This document shows, in pieces, positions 7,760 through 62,713 of a stretch of 64,000 nucleotides of DNA. The DNA is from Bacteroidota bacterium (lineage in GTDB: Bacteria > Bacteroidota > Bacteroidia > 2-12-FULL-35-15), in the NCBI GenBank assembly GCA_025963725.1, contig JAOQAE010000002.1, forward strand, positions 1,356,411 to 1,420,410. The letters run 5' to 3'. How positions within the stretch are numbered: position 1 is the stretch's first letter; each line of letters begins with the position of its first letter. The notes beneath the pieces were generated by a model. That model searched no databases and was not told the DNA's origin. It worked only from the letters and a program-made list of their open reading frames with translations. A program made the position numbers and the translations under genes.

Positions 7760-7771
7760 TCCTTCGCCTGT

Positions 7772-13184: not shown

Positions 13185-13215
13185 GAGACATTCGTTCAAG
13201 TCATAAATCAATTAC

Positions 13216-13485: not shown

Positions 13486-13533
13486 TGATGATATGGTTAT
13501 TTATGAACCGGGACATTTAAAATCCCCGGACAA

Positions 13534-14169: not shown

Positions 14170-14170
14170 C

Positions 14171-17203: not shown

Positions 17204-17284
17204 ATAAAGTAAATTTACTAAGAATCACCAAGCGGTGTATTGCCGCTTCAAAAAAATAACATATTTATGCGATGAAGGCCCACA

Positions 17285-18616: not shown

Positions 18617-18687
18617 GATGCTACAGGAGATTTTATCCGGGCGCAAAAGTGGATAAGATGATCCTCACAAAAAATAGCATGAATGTG

Positions 18688-46579: not shown

Positions 46580-47959
46580 ATGAGTCCGAAGCTCAAAAAA
46601 ATTCGTCTTGCGTTAAAATGGACCGGCTTTTACATCCCGTTCACATTTTACTGTGCGCTGTTCTGCATCGCCTGCGGCATCGGCTATGCATGGCTGCACA
46701 GCAAGGCCGGCATCCCGGATTCGGCGTACAAAGACATCTTCACGCTCCTGCTTCGCTTCTCTGCCGGCTTTTGCCTCATCTTTCTTTCCACGGGATTTAT
46801 CACGGTGGCACTTCCCTTCGTTTATTTCCTGATCAGGCGGAAAAGCAACGAGGTGGATTTCAGCATCTCCACTCCTTCCCGCACCGATAATGAACAGGCG
46901 CGGCAGGCGATCGACATTCACCTGCATCCTGTTTTAAAGCCGCTGCTCGGATTTGTGAAGATCCGCCTGAAATATGGCGATGCACAATTTTCCGATAAGT
47001 TTTCGCTGGTGAAGCGCTCCGATAAAAAATTATTTTCCACCAGCCTCGACGGCACCTATTACTGGGAGCTTCCCGAGATCAAAGAATACCGCATCGACAA
47101 AGCGATCATTTATTTCGAAGATTTTTTCCAGTTCTTCTCCTTTGCAATGCCGCTGGAAACAAGCAGCGGATTTCATACTTACCCGCTGTCGCGGCCTTCG
47201 AAAGCCCTCAATGCCTTTCCGCGGAAAACGGAGGAAACCAGCATGCGCATCGAGGAAATAAAGCGCGTGGAAGGCGAGCTGATCAATTACAAGAACTTTG
47301 AAAGCAATGATGACGTGCGCAGGATCGTCTGGAAAATATATGCAAAGAACAAGGAGCTGGTGGTGCGCATTCCCGAGGTCATGGATCCCTACGCATCGCA
47401 CATGTACCTCTATCCATCCTTCTTTTCTTCCTTTGATGTGAAAGACAATGAAGTGATCGGCATACCTTTTCTCAACTATTATAAAACGGTGTGCTGGTCG
47501 GTTTACCGGCAGCTTGTTTCCAAAGGATTTGATGTGCGTTACGTTGCCGACCAGGACATCCCGCAAAATAAGCTTGAGAATGATGCCGAGCAGGTGCGCT
47601 ATGCGATCAGCGTAAGCAAATGGCATTCGGAAAAAGAGCTGCGCGATTTTGTAAAGCTGAAGGATGCATCAGTGGTGATCATCTCTTCGCTGAGCGATCC
47701 CGAGCAGGTGAAACAATTGCTGGAAGCGAGCGGGAATGAAATTTCATTTGTGTTTATTCCGCTTACGGAAGGGCTCAATAAGCAGCACCTTGGCGACTGG
47801 CTGCAATGGCTGTTCCTGCAGCGTGAAAAAGATTCGATGGCGGTGCATAAAACAAACTGGAGCCTTTCGCTGCTGCGCTTAAAGCTGTCGAAAAATGAAA
47901 AGGCATTGAAGCAATTGCTGGATGCCTATGAGCGTTCATCGGTATTGGAAAAGAAATGA
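46580..47959 (+). CDS. DUF58 domain membrane protein (MoxR-associated)
   Basis: Two N-terminal TM helices. DDVRRIVWKIYAKNKELVVRIPE matches the DUF58 core (D.R.IdWka.Ar...l.vre). It is in an operon with transglutaminase-like and MoxR genes. Confidence 0.6.
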   Translation: MSPKLKKIRLALKWTGFYIPFTFYCALFCIACGIGYAWLHSKAGIPDSAYKDIFTLLLRFSAGFCLIFLSTGFITVALPFVYFLIRRKSNEVDFSISTPSRTDNEQARQAIDIHLHPVLKPLLGFVKIRLKYGDAQFSDKFSLVKRSDKKLFSTSLDGTYYWELPEIKEYRIDKAIIYFEDFFQFFSFAMPLETSSGFHTYPLSRPSKALNAFPRKTEETSMRIEEIKRVEGELINYKNFESNDDVRRIVWKIYAKNKELVVRIPEVMDPYASHMYLYPSFFSSFDVKDNEVIGIPFLNYYKTVCWSVYRQLVSKGFDVRYVADQDIPQNKLENDAEQVRYAISVSKWHSEKELRDFVKLKDASVVIISSLSDPEQVKQLLEASGNEISFVFIPLTEGLNKQHLGDWLQWLFLQREKDSMAVHKTNWSLSLLRLKLSKNEKALKQLLDAYERSSVLEKK

Positions 47960-48005
47960 TTCAGTGGTTCACCACAGATTACACGGATAGCACAGATAAA
48001 GCAAC

Positions 48006-50624
48006 ATGAGCATAGGAAAAGTACATAGCATAAAAAAGATGATCGCGCAGCTGTTGCTGTTAGCTGCTCCTACGGCCATCCTGTTCTTTTATCTCTTATG
48101 GGATGTTAACCGCTTTTACGACATCCTCGAGAACAACTGGATCAGACAGGGAATTTATTTTACATCAGGGATCGTCGCCGCGATCATATTCTATGCGTTC
48201 CGCTTCCGATTCTTCACAACGGCTGCCATCGTTTTCCTGTTTTGCTATTCCTGCTATAAGCTATTGGGCAGCGTTTCGTTCGGGGAGTTCGATGCGTTTT
48301 ATTTTTCCATCCAGTTCCTCATTTTCACTTTCCTCTTCTCCGTAGGATGGCTTGCCGGCTTCGGCTTCAGCAGGTCGCGGTACTTTACGGTTGCATGGAG
48401 CGTGCTGCTGCTGGTGGCGCAGATCGTGGTGGTGAGCAAAACAACCGACATCAAGGTGAATGTGCTCATCAATGCTTTTGTGCCCATTCTTGCTTACGCT
48501 TTTTACATCATCTATACAGCAGAGCTGATCCGTAACATGAACGATGATGAGCCGAAATTCAGCTGGTTCATCCTGAAGCGCCTTTCCGGATTTGCCGTGG
48601 TGGCAATGCTGCTCTTTCTCCTCGTCTTCACTTTCTTTAAGAACGATTTCATGGCTGTAGAGCGTGAATGGGGCGGTTCCCAGCCGCAATCTGAGAAAGG
48701 AAAGGACAAGAGCGAGAACATGAATAAGAAGGACGGCAAAGGCAATGTGAGCAACAAGGACCAGACAAAGCTTACCGGCTCCTTGAGCAAGGACAAGCAG
48801 CTCGTGTTTGTTGCCAAGCTCGATAACTATTTCGATGATAACATAACGCCAAATCCTCTTTACTTCACCGCTTTCTATTACGGAAAGTTTGATACGCTTA
48901 CGCAGACCTTTGAACAGGATAGCCTCATGCCTTACAACGACCTGTTCAGTCCGGACCCATCGAAGATCCCTCTGTATTTTTCGAAATCCGACTCTTCCGT
49001 CCTTAAGAACAGCTTCGCTACAAAGAACCGTAAAGTGGTGACTGCCGACATTTACAAAGTGGTGCTTTCGCCGGACGTGTACCTTGCGCCTTCAACGGCT
49101 TTCTTCTGCCAGCCGATGTCGGTGCCGAAAGAATTCAAGGACCAGTACAAAAGCTCCTACCGCGCCAAAATGTGGGTAAGCGACCTGAACAGCGCCTACT
49201 TCATCTACAACCCGGCTGGTAACAAACAGCTCGCCGCTTTCCAGGAGCTCCGCTTCAACAAATTAAGAGAGATCAAAAAGGTAACTGGCCCCGATAAAAA
49301 ATTCATGGATTATTACACCTTCATGCCGAAGGATGAAGAATACAAAAAGATCGGCGAGCTGGCAAAAGAGGTTACAGCGAATGCTTCAACGCAGATCGAC
49401 AAGATGATCGCGATCCGCGATTATTTTTTAAGCAAAGATGAATTCGGCCAGCCGCTTTTCAAATACTCCGATAATCCCGGCATCCCCGGGCTGCCAAGCG
49501 CCAACAAGCTTACGTATTTCCTTCTGGAGAACAGGAAAGGCTACTGCGCGTATTTCGCGGGGGCAACATTATTCATGCTGCGTTCGCTCGGCATTCCTTC
49601 ACGCGTTGCGGCAGGTTATCTCACAGTCGACCGCAGCAGCAAAAACCCCGGCTGGTACTGGTACTATGCCGACCAGGCACATGCATGGGTGCAGGTGTAT
49701 TTCCCTGAATACGGCTGGATCGATTTTGATACTACAGTGCCTGATGTAAATACACAGCAATCGCCGCAGCCGGATGGCACGCCCCCGATGAACATCCCGC
49801 AGACGTACATGGTCGCTGATGGGGAGATAAAATCGGTGGATGTAAAAGCAAAGAAGATCAGCATGACGATCACCAAGCTGCTCTACCATGATAAGGATTA
49901 TGAAACAAAGATCGCCAAAGAGCTGAGCATCGATGTATCGATCGCAACCATATCGGCTGATACAGGCGCCGTGCAGCTTTCTGCGCTCACACCGGGATTG
50001 CACATTACAGCCGTTTCCTATTCCGAAGCACTGAAAAATATTCTTGCTGAACAAGATGACAGCCTGGCTTCCATCCTGGAAAAACTCCCGGTACCAACTC
50101 CGGTGGACGAAGTGAAGCTGCTTTTAAAAGATGAACTGAAGGAGCAGCAAAAGAAAAAAGAGGACCAGGCAAAAGCGCCTGTCGACTGGGCAAAAACAAT
50201 CCTCTATTTGCTAACCGCCCTCGCCGGCCTGCTTGTATTGTTGTTCCTGAGCCCGTGGTTCATCTGGATCTTCCTCAATGCAAAAGCGAAAGGCAAAGGC
50301 AATTCCAAAGCCTACAACAGCTACAGGGCATCGCTTTATTACCTGAACCAGCTTGGCTTTGAGCGGCAGAACATGGGCCCGCAGGAATATGCATACAGCA
50401 TCGACAACCGTTTCGGAAGCTCATTCAATACGTTCAACACTGCGTACCAGAAAGCGAAATACAGCTCTGTGCCGCTTACTGCGGCGGAAAAAGAAGTGCT
50501 GAACAATTCCTACAACAGCTTCATTAAAAAAGTAAGATCGCAGGTGCCGCTGAAAACACGCATCAGCAGGTTCCTTAATATTTACAACACAATTCATTTT
50601 TTCACGCAACCTAAAATAAAGTAA
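48006..50624 (+). CDS. Transglutaminase-like domain membrane protein
   Basis: Multiple N-terminal TM helices. TGase core Cys-His-Asp: GYCAYFAGATLFMLRSLGIPSRVAAGY ... HAWVQVYFPEYGWIDFDTT. One further TM helix after the core. Confidence 0.75.
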   Translation: MSIGKVHSIKKMIAQLLLLAAPTAILFFYLLWDVNRFYDILENNWIRQGIYFTSGIVAAIIFYAFRFRFFTTAAIVFLFCYSCYKLLGSVSFGEFDAFYFSIQFLIFTFLFSVGWLAGFGFSRSRYFTVAWSVLLLVAQIVVVSKTTDIKVNVLINAFVPILAYAFYIIYTAELIRNMNDDEPKFSWFILKRLSGFAVVAMLLFLLVFTFFKNDFMAVEREWGGSQPQSEKGKDKSENMNKKDGKGNVSNKDQTKLTGSLSKDKQLVFVAKLDNYFDDNITPNPLYFTAFYYGKFDTLTQTFEQDSLMPYNDLFSPDPSKIPLYFSKSDSSVLKNSFATKNRKVVTADIYKVVLSPDVYLAPSTAFFCQPMSVPKEFKDQYKSSYRAKMWVSDLNSAYFIYNPAGNKQLAAFQELRFNKLREIKKVTGPDKKFMDYYTFMPKDEEYKKIGELAKEVTANASTQIDKMIAIRDYFLSKDEFGQPLFKYSDNPGIPGLPSANKLTYFLLENRKGYCAYFAGATLFMLRSLGIPSRVAAGYLTVDRSSKNPGWYWYYADQAHAWVQVYFPEYGWIDFDTTVPDVNTQQSPQPDGTPPMNIPQTYMVADGEIKSVDVKAKKISMTITKLLYHDKDYETKIAKELSIDVSIATISADTGAVQLSALTPGLHITAVSYSEALKNILAEQDDSLASILEKLPVPTPVDEVKLLLKDELKEQQKKKEDQAKAPVDWAKTILYLLTALAGLLVLLFLSPWFIWIFLNAKAKGKGNSKAYNSYRASLYYLNQLGFERQNMGPQEYAYSIDNRFGSSFNTFNTAYQKAKYSSVPLTAAEKEVLNNSYNSFIKKVRSQVPLKTRISRFLNIYNTIHFFTQPKIK

Positions 50625-50625
50625 A

Positions 50626-51645
50626 ATGGAAGAGAACATTCAAATAGAGCAAGCCCTCGCCAATATCGGGAAGCTGGTTGACAACATCGAAACGGTGATC
50701 CGCGGCAAGCGCCAGCAGATTCAGTTCGTGCTCACCGCCCTTCTTGCAAAAGGGCATATCCTCATGGAAGATAATCCCGGCACAGGAAAAACGGTGATGG
50801 CAAAAACGCTGGCGAAAAGCATCTCGGGTGCGGAAGGCTCTTCGGGCGCCAATTTCAAGCGCATCCAGTTCACTCCCGACCTTCTCCCGATGGACCTGAT
50901 CGGCTCGCACATTTTCGACGATGTGAAAAAAGAGTTCGTGTTCAAGAAAGGGCCGTTATTCTGCAATGTGCTGCTGGCGGATGAGATCAACCGCGCCTCG
51001 CCGAAAGTGCAGTCGGCGCTGCTCGAGTGCATGGCAGAGCACCAGATCACCATGGGTGAAACCACCTACCCGCTCGAAAAATTATTCTTCACCATCGCCA
51101 CGCAAAACCCCGTGGAGATGGAAGGAACTTACCCGCTGCCGGCAGCGCAGCTCGACCGATTCTTCATCAAGATCTACTTCGGCTATGTTGACGAAGCCAC
51201 AGAGCTCAATATCTACAAGGATTACCTCGGCATCCAGAACAACCAGGACAACCTTCAGCAGGTGCTGAGTATGAAGGAGATCTTATTCCTGCAGGAAGAA
51301 ACTGAAAAGGTATTTATCCACGAAGAGCTGATCAACGCCGTGAAAAATATTGTGCGTGATACAAGAAGCCACCCCGATATTGTACTCGGCGCTTCCATCC
51401 GCAGCGGGATCACCTTTTTAAAATGCCTCAAAGCATTTGCTCTGGTGAACGGAAGAACCTTTGTAACAGAGGACGACATCCGCGGGATCACCTTTGCCGT
51501 GCTGGATCACAGGCTGATCTACCGCAACAGGGACGCCCGCCAGAAAGCGCTGCCGCTGATCATCGGCAGGGAGCTCGACCGTTTAAGCAAGTTGAACATC
51601 ACCACTAACAGAACAGCCTTTGCAGCCCCTGTACAAAATATCTAA
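50626..51645 (+). CDS. MoxR family AAA+ ATPase
   Basis: GHILMEDNPGTGKT (Walker A), LLADEINRASPKVQSALLE (Walker B / sensor) and the typical 320-340 aa length. Confidence 0.9.
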   Translation: MEENIQIEQALANIGKLVDNIETVIRGKRQQIQFVLTALLAKGHILMEDNPGTGKTVMAKTLAKSISGAEGSSGANFKRIQFTPDLLPMDLIGSHIFDDVKKEFVFKKGPLFCNVLLADEINRASPKVQSALLECMAEHQITMGETTYPLEKLFFTIATQNPVEMEGTYPLPAAQLDRFFIKIYFGYVDEATELNIYKDYLGIQNNQDNLQQVLSMKEILFLQEETEKVFIHEELINAVKNIVRDTRSHPDIVLGASIRSGITFLKCLKAFALVNGRTFVTEDDIRGITFAVLDHRLIYRNRDARQKALPLIIGRELDRLSKLNITTNRTAFAAPVQNI

Positions 51646-53677
51646 AACCCGGTTTCTCTTGCCCGCGCTGCTGTGCATGAGCCTGTTCCTCCACAAAAGT
51701 GCGGGAGCGCAGGGCAATGCATCGGCGCGCTATGAGATCGATGCAAAGCGCATCGGCGTATCTCCTACCGATAAGGACGCGCTGCCGCGGAGCCGCGAGT
51801 TCCTCCGCCTCGACAGCACCTATTATGTTGGCTGGATGTACGAAGGGCTTTATAAATTTGAACGCAGCGCCGATTATTTAGGATATAAGTATGCAGCAGT
51901 GCCTTTGCAGAAAGCATTCGACCTGCTCGACAAAGATTACGGCAACCGGCTGAGGAATATCTACTCCTCCTTCATGTATTACGAGCAGAACAGGAACCGC
52001 ATGAGCGACCTGTTCGAGATCGCCTATGCGCTGCAGAACTGCTACAACAGCATCGAGATGCCTGATTCCACGATGGCGCTCCTCGACAGGATAGAAAGCT
52101 ACCGTTTTCAAAAAGACTATTTCGGCGTTTACAACGAGCGCGCATGGATCTACCACCGTAACCGCTTTTTCACTTCCGAAAAATTCAGCTTCCTGAAAAA
52201 TTCCGTGGAAGAGAATGAAGACATGGCCTTCCGCTGCTGCTACCACCAGCTCGACCTGATCCAGCAGAACAGGAGCATCAACGATTACTGGTACGGGCCG
52301 CAGCAAAGCGAAGATGATATTTTAAGCGTGGAGCATAACCTCGCGCTGCTGCATTGCTACAATAAAAATTACGACAGCGCCGAATATCATTACCAGCACC
52401 TCATCGCCGGCAACCGCGTGGTATGGGGAAATTATGCGAACATGCAGCATGAGATGGGGAACATCGACAGCGCGATCACCTACTACTCCATGCCGCAAGG
52501 TGTAAGAGAACACGCGCTGAGCGAGCCCGATTATTATCTGCCGGAGATCTTTGTGTACGGCGGGCGCACAAAAGAGGCGATCACGATGGTGCGTGAAAAG
52601 ATCGAATCGAGCGGCTCCACTCCCGGTTTCGGATGGTACAACATTGCGCTGGCACGCAGCTACCTGTACGACGGACAGCTCGACAGCGCGGGCTTCTTCC
52701 TCGATAAAGCGCAAAACTTCAAAGAGCTTCACCTGCATACTACGCTAACACAATCACAGTATGAATTCACCATCAACCTGCTGAGGGTGCAGCTGCTCGA
52801 TAAAAAAATGGATGAAGTGAAGTTCCTCAACAAAGGATGGTGGTATTCGCCGGGCAGCCTGTACGACCTGCTTTCGCTGAAGGTTCAGAAGATGATGATG
52901 GAGTATGTAGTTGTGAACGAGCTTGCCGCGAATCCCGAGCGGCAGCGGATCATCTACGACCTGTTCTGCGGCGAATCAACCGTAAGCTACGATGAGATCA
53001 TGTACCTGCTGAAGGACTTTAATTCCCCCTACTTCCGCAAGCGCTGCGATTACAGCAAGGGCAACGACAAGCGGATGCGGATCCGGAAATACTTCAAGCT
53101 GTTCTCCGCAAAATTAAAGCTGGAAGACGGTGATGACGAAGATGCAAACATGGAAGCGGATTCACTGCTACAGGAAGTATACGCACAGGAAGGCATCCAG
53201 CTCGATACGGCCAATGAAAAGCTTTTCCTCGCAAGGGCCTATGAAATCCTCTCCAATACAAGCGATGATGAGGACAAGCAGGCGGAGCACGACCGTTACC
53301 AGAACAGCTTCCTTGAAGAATACCCACAGCTGGTTCCCTTTTCGAACCTGCGGATGAAAATGAAATTAACAGTCGCAGGAAATGATGATGCCATCACCGC
53401 ACAGGTAATAGAAGATCTTAAAGACTGCAACATTGAATGGCTGGAAGAAGGCGACAACGTTGCAGAAGCCAGCATCAGCTTTGTAAAGAAAGGAAAGAAC
53501 TACCAGGTGCTTTTCAACGTGGTGAGCGCCAGCGGAAAAGCGATCGTTTCCGGCGGCGAGATGATCTTTAAGGATGCGGAGAAAACCGGGAAGGAGCTGG
53601 CATTGCGGCTGTTTGCAAAGGGCGGAGGATTGGAATTTGAAGCGGTGAAGGAAGAAGCGGCGGAGCAGTTACCATAA
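51620..53677 (+). CDS. Secreted hypothetical protein (operon partner of MoxR/DUF58/TGase)
   Basis: Likely TTG start overlapping the MoxR 3' end. Hydrophobic signal-like N-terminus LLPALLCMSLFLHKSAGAQ. TPR-like helical content. No assigned family. Confidence 0.5.
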   Translation: MQPLYKISKTRFLLPALLCMSLFLHKSAGAQGNASARYEIDAKRIGVSPTDKDALPRSREFLRLDSTYYVGWMYEGLYKFERSADYLGYKYAAVPLQKAFDLLDKDYGNRLRNIYSSFMYYEQNRNRMSDLFEIAYALQNCYNSIEMPDSTMALLDRIESYRFQKDYFGVYNERAWIYHRNRFFTSEKFSFLKNSVEENEDMAFRCCYHQLDLIQQNRSINDYWYGPQQSEDDILSVEHNLALLHCYNKNYDSAEYHYQHLIAGNRVVWGNYANMQHEMGNIDSAITYYSMPQGVREHALSEPDYYLPEIFVYGGRTKEAITMVREKIESSGSTPGFGWYNIALARSYLYDGQLDSAGFFLDKAQNFKELHLHTTLTQSQYEFTINLLRVQLLDKKMDEVKFLNKGWWYSPGSLYDLLSLKVQKMMMEYVVVNELAANPERQRIIYDLFCGESTVSYDEIMYLLKDFNSPYFRKRCDYSKGNDKRMRIRKYFKLFSAKLKLEDGDDEDANMEADSLLQEVYAQEGIQLDTANEKLFLARAYEILSNTSDDEDKQAEHDRYQNSFLEEYPQLVPFSNLRMKMKLTVAGNDDAITAQVIEDLKDCNIEWLEEGDNVAEASISFVKKGKNYQVLFNVVSASGKAIVSGGEMIFKDAEKTGKELALRLFAKGGGLEFEAVKEEAAEQLP

Positions 53678-53843
53678 TACAGATAATAGATATTTACGAA
53701 TAATCTGTGTGAATAGCCAGCTTAGGATAAGCTATTGACTATTTATTAAATAATTAATAGATTTGTTAACTACCATACAACAGGCTCATTGTTAATATAG
53801 TGAATTAGAAACCACTAGAGAAATTAATTACAAACAACGAAAT

Positions 53844-55301
53844 ATGACTATAAAAAATCTTGAAGATGTATTTGTTACGGAAGGTGTTCCCCTTTATACC
53901 TTCGTAAAACCACCAAACTATAATGATATACTTTTAGACATTCGTAAAATTGGTAAGCCGGTTATTATTGAAGGGCAATCTGGGACTGGAAAAACAACCA
54001 CAGTGAAAAAAGTTCTTGAACAACTTGCTGAGAGGATTCAAATCAACTATTTGTCAGCAAGAAAAGCGATTGACGTAGAACAAATAGTGAAAATTGCTTC
54101 CACATCAATGTCCGGTTTTTTTGTCATCGACGATTTTCATAGGTTATCAAGCGAATTGCAGGAAAACCTCGCCAACATTGCTAAAGTTGCCGCGGAAGAA
54201 GGAAATGAAACACAACTTCCTAAGCTTATTTTTATTGGAATTAATCAAATTGGGTCGGAACTGATTCAATTAGTTCCTGACATTGCTAAACGATTTGGTA
54301 TACATAGAATTGATGCTGGAAGAAGCGATGATATTAAAAAGCTTATTGACAGCGGCTGCGCCGAATTAAATATTTCAATTACCAATCTAGAAGAAATTTA
54401 TTCTGAGTCCAAAGGTGATTATTGGCTAACTCAAATACTATGTCAGTCAATTTGTGGTTTGAATGACGTCACTGAAACCCAACAAAAAAAACGGCAAATA
54501 CATTATGATATTGACAAAACGCGCGCAAAAGTTGTTGGTAAGCTAGAAGCTTCTTATCACATTCCAGTGAAGGACTTTTGCCGGGGAAAGCGATTTCGAA
54601 AATCAAATGATCCGTATTTTAAGCTTCTTCGAGTTATCGGACAACAAGATTCGTCCATAGTTGACCTCAACAAACTTGCCAATCAGCATGAGGATGTCAA
54701 AGGTTCGATTAATAACATTAAGGAGCGACGTCTTGACATTTTGTTGGAGACTAAAGAATCATTAGTTAGATACTTTTATTATAACAGTGATACAAAAAAT
54801 TTCGCCATCGAAGATCCCGCACTATTTTATTACATAAAGCACTTAAATTGGGAGAAATTAAGAGATGATTGTGGCTTCAATGATGGAGAACGAAATTACG
54901 AATTTGAGATTGCTATCTCCTTCGCTGGGGAAAACCGTGAACTTGCAAGAAAATTCACTGAAAAACTAGAGATTTTTGATGTAAGCGTGTTTTTTGATGA
55001 ATTATACGAATCTAATCTATTAGGAAAGGCTTTAACGAAGCAATTTACTAGAATATTTAATGAAGGAAGCAAGTTTGTATTATGCCTGTTAGACCATCAT
55101 CATCATGAAAAAATATGGCCAACATTCGAGAGAGAAACTTTCCGCGTACGCGTTCAAGAAGAAGCTATCATACCTACTTATCTTGACAATACTAAGTTTC
55201 TTGGAATTCCAGAAGATTTGTATGGTTTTGATATGAAAAATGGATATTCTGAAGATGATATAGATAACGCGGTTATTAAATTGGTAGAAAGAATTAGTTG
55301 A
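53844..55301 (+). CDS. P-loop NTPase with C-terminal TIR domain (defense-like); AT-rich
   Basis: Walker A PVIIEGQSGTGKTTTV and Walker B FFVIDDFH in the first 110 aa or so. C-terminal EFEIAISFAGENRELARKFTEKLEIFDVSVFFDE...SKFVLCLLDHHHHEKIWPTFE matches TIR secondary-structure motifs (FISY/FAGED..., αC SxWCxxEL-like). GC is about 36%, against about 50% in neighbours. Confidence 0.65.
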   Translation: MTIKNLEDVFVTEGVPLYTFVKPPNYNDILLDIRKIGKPVIIEGQSGTGKTTTVKKVLEQLAERIQINYLSARKAIDVEQIVKIASTSMSGFFVIDDFHRLSSELQENLANIAKVAAEEGNETQLPKLIFIGINQIGSELIQLVPDIAKRFGIHRIDAGRSDDIKKLIDSGCAELNISITNLEEIYSESKGDYWLTQILCQSICGLNDVTETQQKKRQIHYDIDKTRAKVVGKLEASYHIPVKDFCRGKRFRKSNDPYFKLLRVIGQQDSSIVDLNKLANQHEDVKGSINNIKERRLDILLETKESLVRYFYYNSDTKNFAIEDPALFYYIKHLNWEKLRDDCGFNDGERNYEFEIAISFAGENRELARKFTEKLEIFDVSVFFDELYESNLLGKALTKQFTRIFNEGSKFVLCLLDHHHHEKIWPTFERETFRVRVQEEAIIPTYLDNTKFLGIPEDLYGFDMKNGYSEDDIDNAVIKLVERIS

Positions 55302-55503
55302 AAGTTTTCAGCGGTGTGACACCAGCTAGTCCTTTTTCAATCATTTATTTCTTCCACTTCCCCAGAGATGTGATTGATGTGCAGAACACCAAGCAAGGAA
55401 CTATTATTCGGTTCCAAAACCTCTCCAATCGTAGCTGTATTTCTCTCTTTTCCCCCACCGGATAAATTCCGTATTTTTAGATACTCATTCCAACACCGCG
55501 TTT

Positions 55504-56706
55504 ATGCTCAAACCATTCGAATTTCAGTTCCGGTTAAGGGATCATTTCAAAAAGCAGGAAAAAACCTGGAAATGGTTCTCGGAAGTAAAAGTTAAGAACG
55601 AACAAAGCGAGGAGTTCAAAGCCGAGCTTTTACAAAACACCTATCGCCTCGACCCTATCTCCGAAGCCGGCATTTATACATTGCTGGAGGAAGCCAAAAC
55701 AAAGCTGGGCATCATCATCCCGGTCACCATCTATCAGTCGCAATCTTCACAGGCAAGCAACGCGGGGATCATCTTCATCGGGAACGAAGCGCACCTTGTG
55801 CTTTCAGGCCCTGTCATAAAATTACTCGAAGAAAAGGAATTGCTGGCGCTGATCGCGCACGAGCTCTCGCATGTGCTGCTGTATACAATTGATAATGGCG
55901 ATTTTGAGGTGACCAGCAGGATCATCACAGCGATCGGCAACGATCACCGCAGCGAAGAAGCATTCATGGAAACGTCAAGGCTGTTCAGTCTTTTCACTGA
56001 ATTATACTGCGACATCGGGGCTTACCAGGTTTGCGGAAGCATGGATACGGTGATCTCGACGCTTGTGAAAATTGAAACAGGCCTTGATAAGATCTCCGCG
56101 GAAAATTACCTGAAACAGGCGGATGAGATCCTGGAAAAAATTGAAAAAGGCTCGCTTGGCGACTCGCATCCCGAATCATTTATCCGCGCAAAATGCATTG
56201 CCCTCTACGCTGAAAAAGGCGCGGAATCAGTAAAAGAAGTAAGCGCCCTTATTCTTGGGAAACAAGGTATTTTCAGCCTGAATATTTTTTCAAGGGATGA
56301 GATCTATGAAACAACACGCGAGCTGATCCACCTTATCATGAAGCCTAAATGGATGCAGAGCGAGCACAACAAAGCGCATTACAGGCAGTATTTCAGGGAC
56401 TTCAAAACCGACAGCAATGCCATGCTCACACCTGAGCTGAAAGCCAAGCTGGTCAGCGGCAATAATTCGCTGAAAGATTATTACGCGTATGTTATGCTTG
56501 ATTTTGCGCTGAGCGATACAGAGATCAGTGAACCCGCTTCCGGCCTTGTGCTCGACCTTGCAGAGCAGATGGAGCTACAGGAGCCGCTTGCAAAGGTCTT
56601 CAAAAAGGAGCTAAACCTGAGCGATAAGAAATTCAACGAGTACTCAAGAAATGCAGCAACAGCCTTAAATAATATCCTGGAATCGGAGCAGGAAAAATCA
56701 TATTGA
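55504..56706 (+). CDS. Soluble M48-like zinc metallopeptidase (HExxH...E...HPxxxxR)
   Basis: LLALIAHELSHVLLY (HExxH), a downstream Glu in ELYCD, and LGDSHPESFIRAKC. No TM segments. Its stop (56704-56706) is 1 nt before the ATG of the giant helicase gene, so the two are translationally coupled. Confidence 0.55.
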   Translation: MLKPFEFQFRLRDHFKKQEKTWKWFSEVKVKNEQSEEFKAELLQNTYRLDPISEAGIYTLLEEAKTKLGIIIPVTIYQSQSSQASNAGIIFIGNEAHLVLSGPVIKLLEEKELLALIAHELSHVLLYTIDNGDFEVTSRIITAIGNDHRSEEAFMETSRLFSLFTELYCDIGAYQVCGSMDTVISTLVKIETGLDKISAENYLKQADEILEKIEKGSLGDSHPESFIRAKCIALYAEKGAESVKEVSALILGKQGIFSLNIFSRDEIYETTRELIHLIMKPKWMQSEHNKAHYRQYFRDFKTDSNAMLTPELKAKLVSGNNSLKDYYAYVMLDFALSDTEISEPASGLVLDLAEQMELQEPLAKVFKKELNLSDKKFNEYSRNAATALNNILESEQEKSY

Positions 56707-56707
56707 T

Positions 56708-59700
56708 ATGCTTACAATAAAAGAAACGGAATTTTACAGCTTCCTCAGCGAAGGGATCGGCAAGGGCGGGTTTACCAATGATGATGTGGTTGCTGTTATA
56801 ATGCCATTGCTGGAAGAAGTGCATTCATTTCATCTTTCGGGAAAGGTGGCCCCGCTGGATAAGCTCAGCTCGATACTTGTAACAAACGAAAAGCTCGATA
56901 TTGATGAGTCGCTTGCGGGAAGCCCCTGCAATAACGTTGACAAGGTAACAGCCATCCTGCCAAAGAAAAATGAGGTGTTCGAGATCAGCGGCCACCTGAA
57001 GCAATCGACAGAGATCGGCGAATACAATTCCACCGAAGTAAAGAACCGCGAGATACAATCTGATGCGAATGCGGACATCCTGATGCCGGTGTACCTGCCC
57101 AATTATAAATGCTACGAGGTGTCGCTCGGCCATCACGATGCTGCTACCGACATTTACATCCTGGGGATGATCCTCGCGAGCCTAGCGCTGGGGCTTGACT
57201 TCACGCAGGAAGATGACCTTGCAGGCTTCGCGGAGAACAGGGGAAGCATGATCTTCCTGAATCACAAGATCCATCCTTCGATCGCGAACATCATTTTCGG
57301 GATGACCGAGCTCGACCGCCGCAAACGCTGGAAAGACCTTGGCGAGATCATCGATAATTTAAAGAACTACCGCGATTACAACCCGGAAACCGAGCACGAC
57401 CTTGCCACTATCGCCAATGCAAAGAACAAGGACAAAAGCAACAGGCAGCACTACATCCAGGGCAAGCTGCGCAACAGGCTGTTCGACATCAGCCGCCGCA
57501 ACAGGCTCTTGTATTTCAAGCCCAATCTTAAATTTTTAAATCTTTCCGTGTCTTCCGTTCCTGCGGTCCTTAATTACAAAAACATCGATCCTGAATCGTT
57601 GTTCTTCTGGAACAGGGATGTTTCCGAAAAGGTGATAAAAGGAAAAGACATTTCCCTTTCGAAATACATCCGCTTTGAAGACAATCCTTACATCGCGCCT
57701 TCCCTCGACAAGATCAGGCTGGAAGCGAACAGGGATGTGAATGAATATGGCTTCAGCCAGCTTAAGCTTGTGATCAGCTTCCTCAACTGGTACAATACAA
57801 AGGAGCAAACAACCGAAAAGATCTGCTCACCGCTCATACTTGTACCGGTAAACCTCGTTAAGAAAAAAGGCGTGAAAGACCAGTACATCCTGGAAATTGT
57901 GGACAATGAAGCGGAAATAAACCCGGTGCTTTCATTCATGCTGAAAGACCTGTACGACATCCGCCTGCCGGAAAGCATACAGCTTTCGGAGAGCAGCCTC
58001 GATGAGCTTTTCCGGAATTTAAAGACACAGATAGAAAAGGCGCGCTCGGGGATCGTGCTCGAAATGATCAACAAACCAAAGATCAAGCTGATCCATGCGC
58101 AGGCCAGGCAAACGCTGTCGCAATACAAAAGAAGGGTGAACAGGAACAGGAAAGTACAAACCTTTCACAACCTTGATTATTCGTACAATGCAGATAATTT
58201 CCAGCCTTTAGGCCTGCAGCTTTTCCGCAATTATGTGAAGCCGGAGCATTCCTCGCTCGAGTTCCTTATCAACAGCGACATAAAAGCGAATCCCTCCTAC
58301 TTCAGCGACAGCAGCATGTCGGAAACAACCCGCGAACTGTACCAGCTCGATGGGGGAAATACAAATCCTTTCAAATGGGAGTTCGATACCTGCAACATGG
58401 TGCTGGGGAATTTCAATTATAAAAAGATGTCGCTGGTGCGCGATTACAATTCCATCATCGACGAGAACATTCAAAGCAGCGTGTTCGAATCGCTGTTCAG
58501 CAGCCTTCCGAAAAAGGCCCGGCCGGAACAGGAAACGGAAAGCAGGATCGAAGAGCAGTTCAATGTGATCCAGTCGGACCCGACACAAAACAAGTCAGTA
58601 ATATATTCCCGCAAAGGGGAAAGCTATATCATCCAGGGCCCTCCGGGCACAGGGAAATCGCAGACCATTTCCAACCTTATTGCAGATTATGTGGCAAGAG
58701 GAAAAAAAGTGCTGTTCGTTTGTGAGAAAAGGGCCGCTATCGATGTGGTGTATTACAGGCTGAAGCAGCAGCAGCTCGATCAGCTGTGCTGTCTCATACA
58801 CGATTCCCAAACCGACAAGAAAGAGTTCATCCAGAACCTGAAAGCTACCTTCGGAACATTTACAACGAAGCCGCTTTCCGCAAAGGAAGCAGAAAAGGAA
58901 CGGAACGCTATCGTTGCGCAGATCAATTCGGAGCTCAGCGTCATCAAAGAATTTCACTCCTCCATGCAGCATTACCTTGATCATGCGCAGCTGAAAATAA
59001 GGGAGCTGATGGAAGTGTTGATCCAGAGTAAGCAGCATATTCCGGAAGGCAAAGAAATACCGGGAAGCATTGGCTATAAAGACTGGCTTGCCTACGGCGG
59101 GCTGATTCAGAAGATCTCCCGGACAAGCAACGAGCTGGAGGGAAGCCCTTTTTATTCGAAACATCCATTCAGGTACTTGGGTGAAAAAGCGATCTATAAC
59201 GAGAAGCCGGGAACTGAGCTGAAGGCAGAGCTTATAAGATCGATGGAGCTGGTCGGCGAGATCGCTGAGAGGCTTGAAATGGCCGACGTTCCGGAATCAT
59301 GCATAGGCAGCATTACAGCGCTCCGGGAATTCCTGGAACAGGTGGAAATGCTTCTTCCGTTCAAAGAGCAGGACCGGGCCGGGCTGCTTACCGTCAACAG
59401 CGAACTTCATAAAAAGCTTTCCGATGCAGTGACCAACCTCGAAACGATGCATGCGAAAGTGGAAGAAGCCGCAGGAAAGAATAAGTTCTGGCTTCAGAAG
59501 TTTTCGGAGACCGATGCGGAAAATGCGCTTGAGATCGTGCAAAAACATGAAAGATCATTTTTCTCATTCTTCAATTCCAGCTTCAGGAAGATCAAAAAAG
59601 CGATCCATCAATCCTATAATTTTTCCATGCACCAGGTAAAGCCGCCGCTCACACAGGTGGTTTCCAACCTCAAGGCGGAATACGATGTGCGCAATAGCTT

Positions 59701-62170
59701 CAATAAAGAAAAGCAAAGCACGGAGCAGTTCTTCAGGCTGGGCGATCTGTTCAGCCTTGCTAAAAAGCTGAAAGAGATAGAACCGAGATCAGGCACGCCG
59801 GCCTTTGCCTATGTGAAGAATGAAGAAACCGGCCTTGGCAAGCTAAAAGACCTTGCGGAGATCAGGATCCTCTTCGGCCAGCTGGATGCTTCCCTGCAGG
59901 AAAACCTGCGTGATACTTCCCGCCAAACACTGGAAAGCCTTTCTGAGATCATGCAGGCGATCATCGCGCGCACAAAGGACCTTTCCGCCTTTGCACCGCT
60001 GATGCGCGAACTGAATAGCGCAGATGCCGCGCTGAAGCAGATCGTGCTGGAGGAAAACCTGCTTCCCTCGCAGGTTAAAGGGCTTCTTGCAAAAGCGAGC
60101 ATTGATAAGTTCTACAGCACAAACCGCGATGCCCGGAAGATCGAAGGAGAAAAGATCCTGCACCAGGTAGCAAAGATCAAAAAGCTCTACCAAAAATTCT
60201 TAGCTGTCAACTCGGGATACATCATTGCGAAACAGCAGGAGCGCTTTAATAAGCTGATCCAGAAATCGGAAATGTCGATGGCAGGGAAAAGCAACCAGGA
60301 AAAAGAAGAAAAAAGATCACTGGTGGAAGGAAGAAAGATCCTTGACAATGAATTCGGGAAAAGCATGCGGTATAAATCGATCCGCGAAATGGCAACCTCC
60401 GAATCGGGACAGATCATCCGCGAGCTAAAACCTGTGTGGCTGATGAGCCCACTCAGCGTTTCGGATACGCTTCCGCTGCGCACCGATTATTTCGATGTGG
60501 TGATCTTTGATGAGGCCAGCCAGATCACGCTTGAAGAAGGTGTGCCGCCGGTTTACCGCGCCTCGCAGATCATCATCGTGGGTGACGAGATGCAGATGCC
60601 GCCGAGCAATTATTTCAGCAGCTCCTCCTCCGACCCCGACGATCTTTGGGAAGAGGACGATGAAGATTCGAAGCTGCTTTCACTCGATGCCGACAGCTTC
60701 CTCACGCAGGGCGCACGAAAATTTCCTTCTGTAATGCTTGGCTGGCACTACCGCAGCAGGCATGAATCGCTGATCGGCTTTTCCAATGCATCTTTCTATA
60801 AAAATGAATTGCTCACGATCCCGGATAATCTAGACAATCAGAATGAGCTGAACGAAATAACAGCAGAAAATAAAAACGATGCTGTAACCAATGCGGCTGC
60901 ATTGCTCGAACGCCCCATCAGCTATCATTTTCTGAAGCATGGCGTTTATGAGAGCCGCAGCAACATTGCCGAAGCGGAGTATATCGCGGAGATGATCCGC
61001 ACATTGCTCCTGCAGAAAAAAGGGCTAAGCATCGGCGTGGTTGCCTTCTCCATGGAACAGCAGGGAGAGATCGAAAGCGCGGTGACGAACCTTGCCAGGG
61101 AGGACAAGGAATTTGAAAAGGCGATAGAGGAAGAATACAAGCGCATGGAAGACAACCAGTTTGTGGGGATCTTCTTTAAAAATTTAGAGAATGTGCAGGG
61201 CGACGAGCGCGATATCATTATCATGAGCACCTGCTACGGGTACGACCCTAAAGGCAAGATGATCATGAACTTCGGGCCGATCAACAGGCGCGGCGGCGAA
61301 AAAAGGCTGAACGTTATTTTTTCACGCGCGAAAAAAAGGATGTGCGTAGTAAGCTCCATTAAGTATACCGACATTAAAAATGAATACAATGAAGGCGCGA
61401 ACTACTTCCGGAAATATTTGCAGTATGCGGAACATGCAAGCAAAGGCAATATGGAAATGGCGAACCTGGTGCTTCAATCCGTGATTGCGGAGGAAAAGAA
61501 AATAAAGCAGGAGCTATACAATACGGTGGTGATCGGCCAGCTGGTGAAAATGCTGGAAGATAACGGCTACAGCACCACAAAGCTGATCGGGCAATCGTAT
61601 TTCAAATGCCATATCGGGGTCAAAAGATCAGCCTCCGATACTTCCTATACTGCGGGCATTCTCGTGGACGACATGTTTCATTATTCGAACAGCGACCTTC
61701 TTGAGCAATACCTGTTCAAGCCGGAGATCCTTCGCTCCAGCGGATGGAAAGTGATGCAGGTGTACTCAAAGGATTGGTACGATGACCCGGATAAATTAAC
61801 AAAGCGCATCCTTGGCTTTATTGAAAGCGATGCGCTTGCTGAACCAAGGGATGAAGCCCCGGAAGAGGAAACGGGATTTACTGAAGAACAACCAAATGAT
61901 GAAACATTTCCGGAGTCTCCCGCAGAAGAAGCAGGAGATGATAATTCCCTGAGCACCGGCGCTGTTCGCCTGCTCAACAGTGAGAACAACAGCAACAAGT
62001 TCTGGGAGATCCATGCAGAAGAAAATAATTTAGTGATCCGCTATGGCAAAGCCGGTACGAAAGGGCAAAGGATCATCAAATCATTCGATACAAAAGCAAT
62101 GGCGGAAAATGAAATGCAGAAGCTGATCAGGCAGAAGCTTGCCAAAGGATATAAAGCCAGCGAAGGCTGA
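56708..62170 (+). CDS. 1820-aa multidomain protein: kinase-like N-terminal remnant, DUF4011, Upf1/DNA2-like SF1 helicase, Vsr/DUF559-like endonuclease fold, and a C-terminal WGR domain
   Basis: N-terminus: LLEEVHSFHLSGKV...ILVTNEKLDIDESLAG and YEVSLGHHDAATDIYILGMILASLALGLDF resemble kinase subdomains VIb-IX without an N-lobe. DUF4011-like segment: DISRRNRLLYFKPNLKFLNLS. Helicase motif I: QGPPGTGKSQT. Motif II: VIFDEASQ. Further motifs: VGDEMQMPP, WHYRSRHESL and RLNVIFSRAKKR (motif VI). Endonuclease-like region: CHIGVKRSASD...AGILVDDMFHYS...GWKVMQVYSKDWYDDP (DUF559/Vsr-like). Terminal WGR: NKFWEIHAEENNLVIRYGKAGTKGQ...KLAKGYKA. Confidence 0.8.
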   Translation: MLTIKETEFYSFLSEGIGKGGFTNDDVVAVIMPLLEEVHSFHLSGKVAPLDKLSSILVTNEKLDIDESLAGSPCNNVDKVTAILPKKNEVFEISGHLKQSTEIGEYNSTEVKNREIQSDANADILMPVYLPNYKCYEVSLGHHDAATDIYILGMILASLALGLDFTQEDDLAGFAENRGSMIFLNHKIHPSIANIIFGMTELDRRKRWKDLGEIIDNLKNYRDYNPETEHDLATIANAKNKDKSNRQHYIQGKLRNRLFDISRRNRLLYFKPNLKFLNLSVSSVPAVLNYKNIDPESLFFWNRDVSEKVIKGKDISLSKYIRFEDNPYIAPSLDKIRLEANRDVNEYGFSQLKLVISFLNWYNTKEQTTEKICSPLILVPVNLVKKKGVKDQYILEIVDNEAEINPVLSFMLKDLYDIRLPESIQLSESSLDELFRNLKTQIEKARSGIVLEMINKPKIKLIHAQARQTLSQYKRRVNRNRKVQTFHNLDYSYNADNFQPLGLQLFRNYVKPEHSSLEFLINSDIKANPSYFSDSSMSETTRELYQLDGGNTNPFKWEFDTCNMVLGNFNYKKMSLVRDYNSIIDENIQSSVFESLFSSLPKKARPEQETESRIEEQFNVIQSDPTQNKSVIYSRKGESYIIQGPPGTGKSQTISNLIADYVARGKKVLFVCEKRAAIDVVYYRLKQQQLDQLCCLIHDSQTDKKEFIQNLKATFGTFTTKPLSAKEAEKERNAIVAQINSELSVIKEFHSSMQHYLDHAQLKIRELMEVLIQSKQHIPEGKEIPGSIGYKDWLAYGGLIQKISRTSNELEGSPFYSKHPFRYLGEKAIYNEKPGTELKAELIRSMELVGEIAERLEMADVPESCIGSITALREFLEQVEMLLPFKEQDRAGLLTVNSELHKKLSDAVTNLETMHAKVEEAAGKNKFWLQKFSETDAENALEIVQKHERSFFSFFNSSFRKIKKAIHQSYNFSMHQVKPPLTQVVSNLKAEYDVRNSFNKEKQSTEQFFRLGDLFSLAKKLKEIEPRSGTPAFAYVKNEETGLGKLKDLAEIRILFGQLDASLQENLRDTSRQTLESLSEIMQAIIARTKDLSAFAPLMRELNSADAALKQIVLEENLLPSQVKGLLAKASIDKFYSTNRDARKIEGEKILHQVAKIKKLYQKFLAVNSGYIIAKQQERFNKLIQKSEMSMAGKSNQEKEEKRSLVEGRKILDNEFGKSMRYKSIREMATSESGQIIRELKPVWLMSPLSVSDTLPLRTDYFDVVIFDEASQITLEEGVPPVYRASQIIIVGDEMQMPPSNYFSSSSSDPDDLWEEDDEDSKLLSLDADSFLTQGARKFPSVMLGWHYRSRHESLIGFSNASFYKNELLTIPDNLDNQNELNEITAENKNDAVTNAAALLERPISYHFLKHGVYESRSNIAEAEYIAEMIRTLLLQKKGLSIGVVAFSMEQQGEIESAVTNLAREDKEFEKAIEEEYKRMEDNQFVGIFFKNLENVQGDERDIIIMSTCYGYDPKGKMIMNFGPINRRGGEKRLNVIFSRAKKRMCVVSSIKYTDIKNEYNEGANYFRKYLQYAEHASKGNMEMANLVLQSVIAEEKKIKQELYNTVVIGQLVKMLEDNGYSTTKLIGQSYFKCHIGVKRSASDTSYTAGILVDDMFHYSNSDLLEQYLFKPEILRSSGWKVMQVYSKDWYDDPDKLTKRILGFIESDALAEPRDEAPEEETGFTEEQPNDETFPESPAEEAGDDNSLSTGAVRLLNSENNSNKFWEIHAEENNLVIRYGKAGTKGQRIIKSFDTKAMAENEMQKLIRQKLAKGYKASEG

Positions 62171-62200
62171 CATTGAATACGATGTCAACACCTCAGCTGT

Positions 62201-62659
62201 TCACGCGATGATCTTTTCCATTTTTATATTCGCCCGCTCATAATGTCCGGCCTCAAGCGGTATCTCATAAAACCCGTACTTTTCATACAGGTGGATCGCG
62301 GGGCCCAGCTGGCGGTTGGAGTACAGCACAAGCTTTTTAATATCATGCCGCTTTGCAAAGCCGATGCAATGTTCCATTAATATTTTGCCGAGCTTCAATC
62401 CCTGGTACTTTTCAGTCACCGCCATCTTTGCAAGCTCGAATGTTCCTTCATTTATTTTCAGCAGGGCTATCACACCCACTATCTCATCGTTGTAAGCGGC
62501 ATAAAAAATAAAGCCGCCTTTATCAATGATCTGCCCTTTCGGATCTGCCAGCGAGATCACGTCATTCGGCTCCACCTTAAAATATTTCTGCAGCCATTCA
62601 TAATTAAGGATGCGGATGTGTTCTTTCAGCTCCTCCCTGTATTCGATGATATTTACCAT
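62201..62659 (-). CDS. GNAT family N-acetyltransferase
   Basis: IVGVIALLKINEGTFELAKMAVTEKYQGLKLGKILMEH matches GNAT motif A. Confidence 0.8.
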   Translation of the reverse strand: MVNIIEYREELKEHIRILNYEWLQKYFKVEPNDVISLADPKGQIIDKGGFIFYAAYNDEIVGVIALLKINEGTFELAKMAVTEKYQGLKLGKILMEHCIGFAKRHDIKKLVLYSNRQLGPAIHLYEKYGFYEIPLEAGHYERANIKMEKIIA

Positions 62660-62713
62660 ATATTATGCGCTTTGTGCAGCGTTCCGAAAATTACTAAACA
62701 TTTATTCTTTCAA

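Follow-up and report, generated by a model that had tools for sequence, protein, structure and literature searches.

Three adjacent genes on a Bacteroidota contig raise the question of whether they form a single anti-phage system or have merely come to lie side by side. The window, i.e., the whole stretch of 64,000 nucleotides that was analyzed, is positions 1,356,411 to 1,420,410 of the forward strand of contig JAOQAE010000002.1 (assembly GCA_025963725.1), which belongs to a metagenome-assembled genome. A reading made from the sequence alone, hereafter the sequence-only reading, pointed to three co-directional genes in it, here called g1, g2, and g3 (products JWO09_1224 to JWO09_1226), and proposed that they make up one defense locus. 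The three open reading frames (ORFs) are exactly where that reading placed them, on the plus strand. Comparison with other genomes shows, however, that the region consists of two independent units. One is g1, a stand-alone gene for a nucleoside triphosphatase (NTPase) fused to a TIR domain. The other is a conserved operon of g2 and g3, encoding a zinc metallopeptidase and a giant helicase. The g2-g3 operon is widespread and uncharacterized; it varies the theme of the DUF4011 helicases (Hhe/ProA) and is not categorically new. The layout is as follows.

53844..55301, plus strand: g1, P-loop NTPase-TIR gene, 485 residues, separate from the operon (ORF, Pfam, PADLOC)
55504..56706, plus strand: g2, soluble M48-type zinc metallopeptidase, 400 residues, first gene of the operon
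56708..62170, plus strand: g3, multidomain helicase, 1820 residues, second gene of the operon
53678..55463, no strand: variable segment carrying g1, delimited by blastn synteny breakpoints against locus L014

The window can be compared with L014, the closest relative among the comparison loci, which carry L numbers here. The L014 helicase is 90% identical to g3, and its neighborhood is that of the window: a transglutaminase-like gene, a MoxR ATPase, a 686-residue gene, the peptidase, the helicase, a GNAT gene, and a CHU_C/PKD protein. blastn aligns window positions 47001–53677 and 55464–62669 to L014 at 86–87% nucleotide identity. Between these blocks, window positions 53678–55463, with g1, correspond to an unrelated 759 bp in L014. 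This L014 segment (7997–8755) has a G+C fraction (GC) of ~0.51, and no gene is called in it in the locus table. It holds overlapping short ORFs of at most 71 residues, plus one 137-residue reverse-strand ORF that runs into the 3' or 5' terminal part of the gene upstream, and none of these ORFs is convincing. The segment may be a decayed gene, a repeat element, or an RNA.

The same absence is found elsewhere. tblastn searches with g1 returned nothing in the loci of the g2-g3 pair that were searched, seven from genomes and 80 from metagenomes. Counting all related loci, ~100, g1 is beside the pair in none. Neither is g1 among the called genes of the further pair loci that were read (L011–L013, L014–L017, and a Ralstonia megaplasmid). 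Seen from the g1 side, the family is very uniform, with homologs of 485–495 residues that are 57–87% identical, and it ranges over Bacteroidota, Nitrospirota, Nitrospinota, and Alpha- and Gammaproteobacteria. In the three homolog contexts that were read, the pair adjoins none. The Algoriphagus homolog stands alone between sulfatase and efflux genes, the Salinimicrobium homolog lies in an evident defense island (AAA_13, putAbiC, RVT_1, DUF5677, IS110, and Fic), and the Bradyrhizobium homolog is near a gene for a ThsB-type TIR protein (ThsB_TIR). One further homolog is on an IMG/VR viral contig. The base composition of g1 also sets it apart, with a GC of 0.353 versus 0.474 for the whole window. 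A search for target-site duplications and terminal repeats around g1 gave short, chance-like matches only.

Thus, g1 was acquired horizontally and is independent of g2-g3. It is an independently mobile single gene, because it is missing in the syntenic L014 and in the other pair loci, and its homologs stand alone. The sequence-only reading had made the TIR-NTPase a partner of the peptidase and helicase, and had named an unrelated mobile insertion as a finding that would speak against the model; such an insertion is what was found, since the TIR-NTPase does not travel with the pair. The three-gene system is therefore rejected by synteny and co-occurrence. A TIR gene beside a system is no evidence of partnership.

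As a protein, g1 is what it had been taken for, the product of an AT-rich gene with a Walker A/B NTPase fused to a C-terminal TIR domain, as indicated by its GC, its Pfam matches, and its invariant motifs. Pfam assigns the N-terminus to AAA_22/nSTAND3. The TIR_2 match (PF13676, residues 356–472) is borderline, at 28.9 bits against a cut-off of 28. Invariant in 18 g1 homologs are the Walker A motif GQSGTGKTT, the Walker B residues DD96–97, the SFAGENR motif, and W425/E429. E429 is the candidate catalytic Glu of the TIR domain. The two segments are located as follows.

53973..53999, plus strand: g1 Walker A motif GQSGTGKTT, residues 44–52 (invariant in 18 homologs)
54909..55259, plus strand: g1 TIR domain, residues 356–472, with SFAGENR and W425..E429 (Pfam TIR_2, alignment)

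A P-loop NTPase and a TIR domain with a conserved Glu are found in TIR-STAND, Thoeris, and the PADLOC candidate systems PDC-S59 and PDC-S66, as they are in g1. In PADLOC, g1 gives weak matches to PDC-S59 (5e-14) and PDC-S66 (4e-6), and the NCBIfam anti-phage models reach E values of only 3e-4 to 4e-4, far under their cut-offs. Assignment to Thoeris was rejected, as PADLOC finds no ThsA (SIR2/Macro-SLOG) or ThsB-type component at the locus, whether on g1 or on the flanking genes scanned. The classical STAND/Avs proteins were rejected as well. The nSTAND3 match of g1 (28.4 bits, cut-off 27.2) covers the Walker A region only. STAND/Avs NTPases have C-terminal sensor repeats, whereas g1 is short, at 485 residues, has its TIR domain at the C-terminus, and shows no repeat domain in Pfam. 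Hence, g1 is a mobile single-gene NTPase-TIR and a candidate defense type, in which the NTPase switch probably controls a TIR domain that would cleave NAD+ or make a signal.

The second unit, the g2-g3 operon, is held together both in the window and across genomes. The g2 stop codon, TGA, ends at 56706, a single T follows, and the g3 ATG begins at 56708, the spacing of one nucleotide that had been reported. The 202 bp between g1 and g2 had been called promoter-like. This description was not confirmed: sigma-70-like sites in the segment 53600–56800 number 10, versus 8.5 +/- 3.4 in shuffled sequence, and both promoter and terminator consensus matches are at chance level in this sigma-70-type scan, the scope of which does not include Bacteroidota-type promoters.

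In genome sequences, all seven full-length matches to g2 (L001–L007) have the helicase directly downstream, in one case cut by the contig end. The carriers are Flavobacterium, Ferruginibacter, Nonlabens, Aquimarina, Pseudoduganella, Lysobacter, and a member of the Rhodocyclaceae. The two genes are separated by a few to ~40 nucleotides in Bacteroidota, and they overlap by 4 nucleotides in Proteobacteria. The same pair is found in three more peptidase loci (L011–L013), in the helicase look-ups L014–L017, and on the megaplasmid of Ralstonia solanacearum, whose annotation gives ‘M48 family metalloprotease’ for the one gene and ‘WGR domain-containing protein’ for the other. When metagenomes were scanned with the family-specific first 600 residues of g3, 80 loci were recovered, 78 of them with an upstream region, and the peptidase lies just upstream of the helicase in 74 of these 78. 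The co-occurrence of the two genes, which the sequence-only reading had proposed to check, is thus borne out in all genome loci read and in nearly all testable metagenomic loci. No gene besides the pair is conserved across all loci compared. The pair ranges over Bacteroidota and Beta- and Gammaproteobacteria, and the family is sparse and phylogenetically patchy across phyla.

The g2 product belongs to peptidase family M48 by score, by motifs, and by fold. The Pfam Peptidase_M48 profile (PF01435) gives 29.7 bits against a cut-off of 20.3, and M48 is the fold found in fold searches. Three motifs are invariant in 22 g2 homologs: HELSH at 119–123, E166, and HPE..R at 222–228. Because the motifs are invariant and the fold is that of M48, the protease looks active, as judged from alignment and model.

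55858..55872, plus strand: g2 HELSH zinc-binding/catalytic motif, residues 119–123 (H119, E120, and H123 invariant)

No transmembrane segment, signal peptide, or N-terminal hydrophobic segment is predicted in g2. In a Kyte-Doolittle profile with a span of 19 residues, the highest value is 1.4, and it falls within a predicted beta strand. The description of g2 as a soluble HExxH...E...HPxxxxR M48-type metallopeptidase was therefore correct. Two other identities were tested and did not fit. A membrane or periplasmic M48 enzyme of the HtpX/Ste24 type is not supported by hydropathy or by the NCBIfam HtpX models, which give 21–22 bits against cut-offs of 245–369. A SprT/Wss1-like protease for DNA-protein crosslinks (DPCs) is not indicated either. 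The SprT-like Pfam profile (PF10263) gives 24.4 bits, under its cut-off of 25.6, and SPRTN is a weak Foldseek match, M48 ranking first. In comparison with HtpX, Ste24/ZMPSTE24, BepA, Oma1, and the minigluzincins, g2 stands apart: it is predicted to be soluble and cytoplasmic, it has its own helical C-terminal half, which finds no confident full-length match in fold searches, and it is a discrete family genetically locked to a helicase. A search of 1.84 billion representatives (E <= 1e-30) puts the size of this family at 269 clusters when clustered at 50% identity, and nearly all members are ~400 residues long.

The g3 product is a chain of recognizable domains. All of those claimed for it by the sequence-only reading, namely DUF4011, the superfamily 1 (SF1) helicase motifs, and WGR, were recovered by Pfam, by phmmer searches of the PDB, and by motif position. 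They are arranged as follows.

56708..57373, plus strand: kinase-fold head, residues 1–222, lacking kinase catalytic motifs, i.e., a pseudokinase (AlphaFold2 model (AF2), Foldseek, conservation)
57476..57943, plus strand: DUF4011, residues 257–412 (Pfam 1.3e-15; hhalign)
58595..58966, plus strand: N-terminal RecA-like part of the SF1 helicase, AAA_11, residues 630–753 (Pfam, PDB phmmer, motifs)
60719..61357, plus strand: C-terminal part of the SF1 helicase, AAA_12, residues 1338–1550 (Pfam 6.7e-18, motifs)
61541..61816, plus strand: restriction endonuclease (REase)-fold domain MTES_1575, residues 1612–1703 (Pfam, alignment with ProA-type domains)
61973..62161, plus strand: C-terminal WGR domain, residues 1756–1818 (Pfam 2.2e-16, PDB 2ra8)

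The helicase motifs are GPPGTGKS (Walker A) at 644, DEAS at 1268, VGDEMQ at 1291, and QGDERD at 1497, and the PDB matches are IGHMBP2 and Upf1. An insert of ~500 residues splits the helicase halves, with DEAS and VGDEMQ just upstream of AAA_12. The N-terminal 222 residues give a confident AF2 model, for which Foldseek finds the kinase domains of AMPK alpha, PknB, SIK3, and Stk1 (E values of 1e-5 to 1e-3, probability 1.0, ~218 aligned columns). Pfam finds no kinase in g3. The Gly-rich loop, the VAIK Lys, the HRD Asp, and the Asn are not among the invariant or near-invariant columns of the head. Its N-lobe is replaced by two helices, and the conserved residues are instead GHHD at 141–144 and D148. 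Thus, the suggestion of a pseudokinase-like N-terminus is upheld. By BLAST, this head is present in 74 of 74 full-length g3 homologs, and the WGR domain in 69 of the 74. In g3, the WGR profile (PF05406) scores 60.2 bits against a cut-off of 22 and matches the WGR of PDB 2ra8. The WGR domain is known from PARPs as a reader of DNA breaks.

The endonuclease of g3 stands as a fold, and its catalytic competence is in doubt. MTES_1575 scores 42.6 bits against a cut-off of 38.2, which agrees with the Vsr/DUF559-like fold that had been claimed. The first acidic position of this fold, Asp in ProA-type domains, is His in g3. Across the 74 family members, it is Ser in 45, His in 8, Thr in 4, and Asn in 2, i.e., one of these four in 59; only 10 members have Asp there. 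What the family keeps of the acidic residues is an Asp further on and a Glu, along with a KDW motif. Because the first Asp is replaced in most members, competence of the family as a nuclease of the PD-(D/E)xK type appears doubtful, and the pattern suggests that MTES_1575 is a non-catalytic DNA-binding remnant.

The pair was also compared with named systems. The DUF4011 helicases include the validated anti-phage proteins Hhe and ProA. The working mode of these DUF4011 anti-phage helicases is poorly understood. Hhe is reportedly a single-gene anti-phage system, attributed to Gao and colleagues in 2020. The best PADLOC matches of g3 are PDC-S37, a single-gene candidate for phage defense (2e-203, 677 bits), and Hhe (1e-97). 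The PDC-S37 match falls into three stretches, the best of which covers profile positions 756–1368 of 1550; PADLOC profiles were scored here without curated cut-offs. The NCBIfam ProA model (NF058533) gives g3 657.6 bits against a cut-off of 1500, with its best match at residues 557–1765, and the Hhe model (NF042953) gives 438.6 bits against an equivalog cut-off of 2000, with its best stretch in the C-terminal helicase/nuclease part, residues 1175–1727. The homologs from Ralstonia and from a soil clade (L046) behave in the same way, at ~708 bits for ProA and 468 and 462 bits for Hhe, all below the cut-offs. Two references from the plasmid collection, an Acinetobacter plasmid protein (L022, WP_243793640.1) and a Bacteroides finegoldii protein (L023, WP_237924679.1), pass the ProA cut-off end to end, with 1769 and 2197 bits, respectively.

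ProA is a DUF4011/DUF3320 helicase. In common with it, g3 has DUF4011, MTES_1575, and an SF1 helicase of the Upf1 type that is interrupted by a long insert. The differences are as follows. In profile comparison, the N-terminal 245 residues of g3 do not align to the N-termini of the two ProA references; the DUF4011 part alone of the g3 N-terminal region aligns, with an hhalign probability of 94–96%. The L023 protein ends in DUF3320 where g3 has WGR, and the shorter L022 protein shows neither. The first acidic residue of the REase fold is Asp in both references and Ser, His, Thr, or Asn in most of the g3 family. No M48 gene is annotated beside either reference. Thus, the peptidase, the kinase-like head, and the WGR domain, which had been said to be foreign to described systems, are missing in the two ProA-scoring relatives examined. 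With Hhe, g3 shares DUF4011, the SF1 helicase, and a Vsr/REase-like domain in one protein, all above the Pfam gathering cut-offs. Hhe (PADLOC PDLC02194) is described as a single gene, whereas the g3 family is in an operon with a protease, and the extra kinase-fold and WGR domains belong to g3. The resemblance to Hhe that had been noticed thus reflects homology and does not extend to membership. By these comparisons, the helicases of the pair form a family that is sister to ProA and Hhe and belongs to neither. In the library searched, there was no paper on PDC-S37 and none giving the origin of the name ProA.

What the g2-g3 pair does is less certain. The reading that we tentatively prefer, at a little under even confidence, is that it is a chromosomally fixed, defense-type, protease-coupled DNA-surveillance module. 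Its nearest named relatives in PADLOC and NCBIfam are anti-phage proteins. Both genes evolve faster than their housekeeping neighbors: median identities are 54% for g2 and 67% for g3 versus 88% for UvrD and 75% for a neighboring exchanger. The g2 family is sparse and patchy, and accessory or defense genes sometimes abut the pair. These include g1 in the window, patatin and HipA_2 in L013, and a gene in L084 (15601–18096, minus strand), immediately downstream of the pair, for a full-length IetS (PADLOC 2.6e-292). IetS is the serine-protease subunit of the Ietes defense system. The neighbor sample that was scanned for defense functions comprises 10 proteins only, too few for enrichment, and contains this one clear IetS and one ambiguous exonuclease, the rest being weak or domain-level matches.

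In this proposed surveillance module, g3 would be an ATP-driven, Upf1-like SF1 translocase. We infer that DNA is its substrate: the WGR tail and the degenerate REase-fold module would direct g3 to nicked or otherwise unusual DNA or to DNA ends. The kinase-fold head, with its catalytic motifs missing, may serve as a docking or regulatory surface. Through translational coupling, g2 would be made in step with g3, and the two products are proposed to interact physically. The protease would be either the proteolytic output of the complex or its activator, in the service of a putative role in defense.

Several observations weigh against this preferred reading. g3 falls well short of the ProA and Hhe cut-offs, as do the Ralstonia and soil-clade homologs. 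PDC-S37, the best-matching system, is a candidate by guilt of embedding only, as the PDC systems were nominated because they are embedded in BREX, DISARM, or restriction-modification loci (bioRxiv 10.1101/2024.01.29.577857). No paper on the g2-g3 family itself was found in the library searched. With the first acidic residue of the REase fold missing in most members, the helicase-nuclease effector logic of Hhe-like systems may not apply. Nor is the protease strictly required for the helicase to be retained, as the helicase is alone, without g2, in 4 of the 78 testable metagenomic loci. The viral contigs scanned with the g2 profile gave no homolog, and in the plasmid collection full-length homologs are on the Ralstonia megaplasmid only; a phage- or plasmid-borne element was rejected on these grounds. 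Most contexts of the pair are housekeeping (ribosomal operon, SecY, uvrD), and DNA-repair genes recur near it. Finally, ~19 metagenomic loci form a clade in which the pair keeps a single chromosomal site. Long syntenic flanks surround it: uvrD/pcrA is upstream and divergent, and genes for a Na+/H+ exchanger and for a hybrid histidine kinase are downstream. This clade inherits the pair vertically, because site and flanks are conserved while g3 diverges to 61% identity. Vertical inheritance is unusual for defense systems.

The last observations bring up the strongest rival, a role in genome maintenance, which we consider somewhat unlikely. The helicase would translocate on damaged or blocked DNA, the WGR domain would sense nicks or breaks, and the M48 protease would degrade protein roadblocks or DPCs. 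Analogues would be eukaryotic SPRTN/Wss1 acting with helicases, or the Upf1/Sen1-like removal of R-loops and transcription-replication conflicts. The concept of a zinc protease with a DNA helicase is common to SPRTN/Wss1 and to g2-g3. It is an analogy only, as g2 has the M48 rather than the SprT fold and there is no homology between the helicases. The near-threshold SprT-like score of g2 and its weak Foldseek match to SPRTN speak for this role; that the score is under the cut-off and the fold is M48 speaks against it.

Vertical inheritance fits genome maintenance, and the divergence of g3 tracks that of UvrD (r = 0.85). The housekeeping contexts fit it as well; they also include ribosomal-protein/SecY genes and, in other loci, polysaccharide-utilization genes. 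A large DUF4011 gene, a candidate relative of g3, is reported to be a core gene of P. aeruginosa flanking a defense hotspot (PMC10250203).

The repair genes beside the pair occur in independent arrangements. uvrD/pcrA is beside the pair in 22 loci, of which 18 have it in divergent and 4 in co-directional orientation, and in L033 a gene for an Fpg/Nei glycosylase lies between uvrD and g2. In Hufsiella ginkgonis (L012, 4472–16677), an imuA-like gene, imuB (IMS), and dnaE2 are directly upstream of the pair and co-directional with it, the gap from dnaE2 to g2 being 92 nucleotides. On the megaplasmid of Ralstonia solanacearum CFBP 8695 (L021, 13678–19515), a UvrA-like protein of 1945 residues, with UvrA_inter and UvrA_DNA-bind domains, is encoded 224 bp downstream of the pair and co-directionally. 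This length is about twice that usual for UvrA. In L057, an RNase_T and GIY-YIG exonuclease gene is upstream of the pair. Against these cases, a single syntenic clade accounts for most of the uvrD adjacency, and UvrA2, ImuA/B, and DnaE2 are missing near the pair in all 80 metagenomic loci, so that a general linkage to UvrA2 or to imuA-imuB-dnaE2 was rejected.

Control by the SOS response leads to a similar result. Bacteroidetes SOS operators have the forms CTAA-N5-TTAG and GGA-N5-TCC (PMC8565304). In Hufsiella, a perfect box of the first form, CTAAAAATATTAG, is at -42 of the imuA-like first gene, and as this cassette is co-directional and upstream, transcription under SOS control may continue into the pair there. 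Boxes of the E. coli type and the Bacteroidetes type, as well as variants, were looked for upstream of g2 in 76 loci, and the positive control, the Hufsiella imuA-like gene, was found. CTAA-N5-TTAG gave 0 sites in the 76 loci versus 0.46 expected, GGA-N5-TCC gave 7 versus 3.4 expected, which was judged not to be an enrichment, and CTGT-N8-ACAG gave none in these 76 loci. General SOS regulation of the pair was therefore rejected, as no box is enriched even though the control worked. The family is, moreover, sparse, patchy, and fast-evolving for a repair pathway, and its nearest named relatives are anti-phage.

A more specific proposal spans both readings, and we think it unlikely to hold in this form. 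The pair would be an undescribed protease-coupled nucleic-acid sensor, in which an Upf1-like helicase, with its nuclease largely lost, a pseudokinase head, and a PARP-type WGR domain, licenses a dedicated soluble M48 protease on foreign or aberrant DNA. The outcome would be either a new protease-effector immunity, fixed in the chromosome, or a bacterial form of helicase-assisted proteolysis of DPCs.

Quite improbable, in our judgment, is a role in neither defense nor repair, with the protease as a pure regulator or maturation factor, which might trim or remove the pseudokinase head or the acidic linker that precedes WGR, or with the pair as a selfish toxin-antitoxin-like module. The tight translational coupling, with gaps of 1–4 nucleotides or ATGA overlaps, would suit such a role, as would a head domain specific to the g3 family and a peptidase that evolves fastest. 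The helicase-only loci, in which the helicase persists without g2, are also consistent with regulation. For an antitoxin, they are a difficulty: L089 and L097 keep an intact g3 without g2, a loss that should be lethal, and g2 as the antitoxin of a toxic g3 is disfavored for this reason. The vertically inherited clade shows no signs of mobility or addiction.

The three genes as one defense system, with the TIR-NTPase working with the protease and helicase, is an extremely improbable reading: the genes are adjacent and co-directional and g1 is of a defense-like type, but g1 is foreign in base composition, is set off from g2 by 202 bp, is missing in L014 and at every other pair locus searched or read, and has homologs that are not beside the pair in the three contexts read.

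Some further features of the loci are recorded here in their own right. In L006 (Lysobacter, 5635–9672, minus strand) and L093 (a metagenomic contig, 6259–8589, minus strand), two unrelated loci, the divergent gene just upstream of the pair is for a second and much larger M48-domain protein, of 1345 and 776 residues, respectively. In L001 (Flavobacterium, 9293–19008), a gene for an NrtR-type Nudix/winged helix-turn-helix regulator is 16 nucleotides upstream of the pair, and on the other side are a phosphoribosyl pyrophosphate synthetase-like gene and then a 482-residue gene. This may be an NAD-salvage context; its occurrence with a PARP-type WGR domain is probably a coincidence. In L016, on a 3.97 Mb contig, a tRNA-like sequence was seen by eye at ~8500–8600, directly upstream of the peptidase gene.

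In the window itself, the cluster upstream of g1 (48006–53677) encodes a transglutaminase-like protein of 872 residues, a MoxR AAA+ ATPase (AAA_3 and bpMoxR matches), and a 685-residue protein with a TPR match only, below threshold. L014 has this cluster in the same place, and it is unrelated to g1-g3. A second AT-rich gene (9837–10985, plus strand; GC ~0.30 versus 0.47 for the window) encodes a 382-residue product with an N-terminal DUF4062 (Pfam 2e-17). It was probably acquired horizontally and is perhaps conflict-related, and it too is unrelated to g1-g3.

To the DUF4011 helicases, the g3 family adds features that should ease the dissection of mechanism: a near-constant and apparently active zinc protease partner, a dead kinase-fold head, and a WGR domain, together with a nuclease that looks degenerate. 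The pair is present in culturable Ralstonia solanacearum, in several Flavobacterium species, and in Hufsiella ginkgonis, so that the defense and repair readings are both directly testable. If the pair acts in defense, it would show that a defense system can be linked to a protease and fixed by vertical inheritance; if it acts in repair, bacteria would have a new way to remove protein-DNA obstacles.

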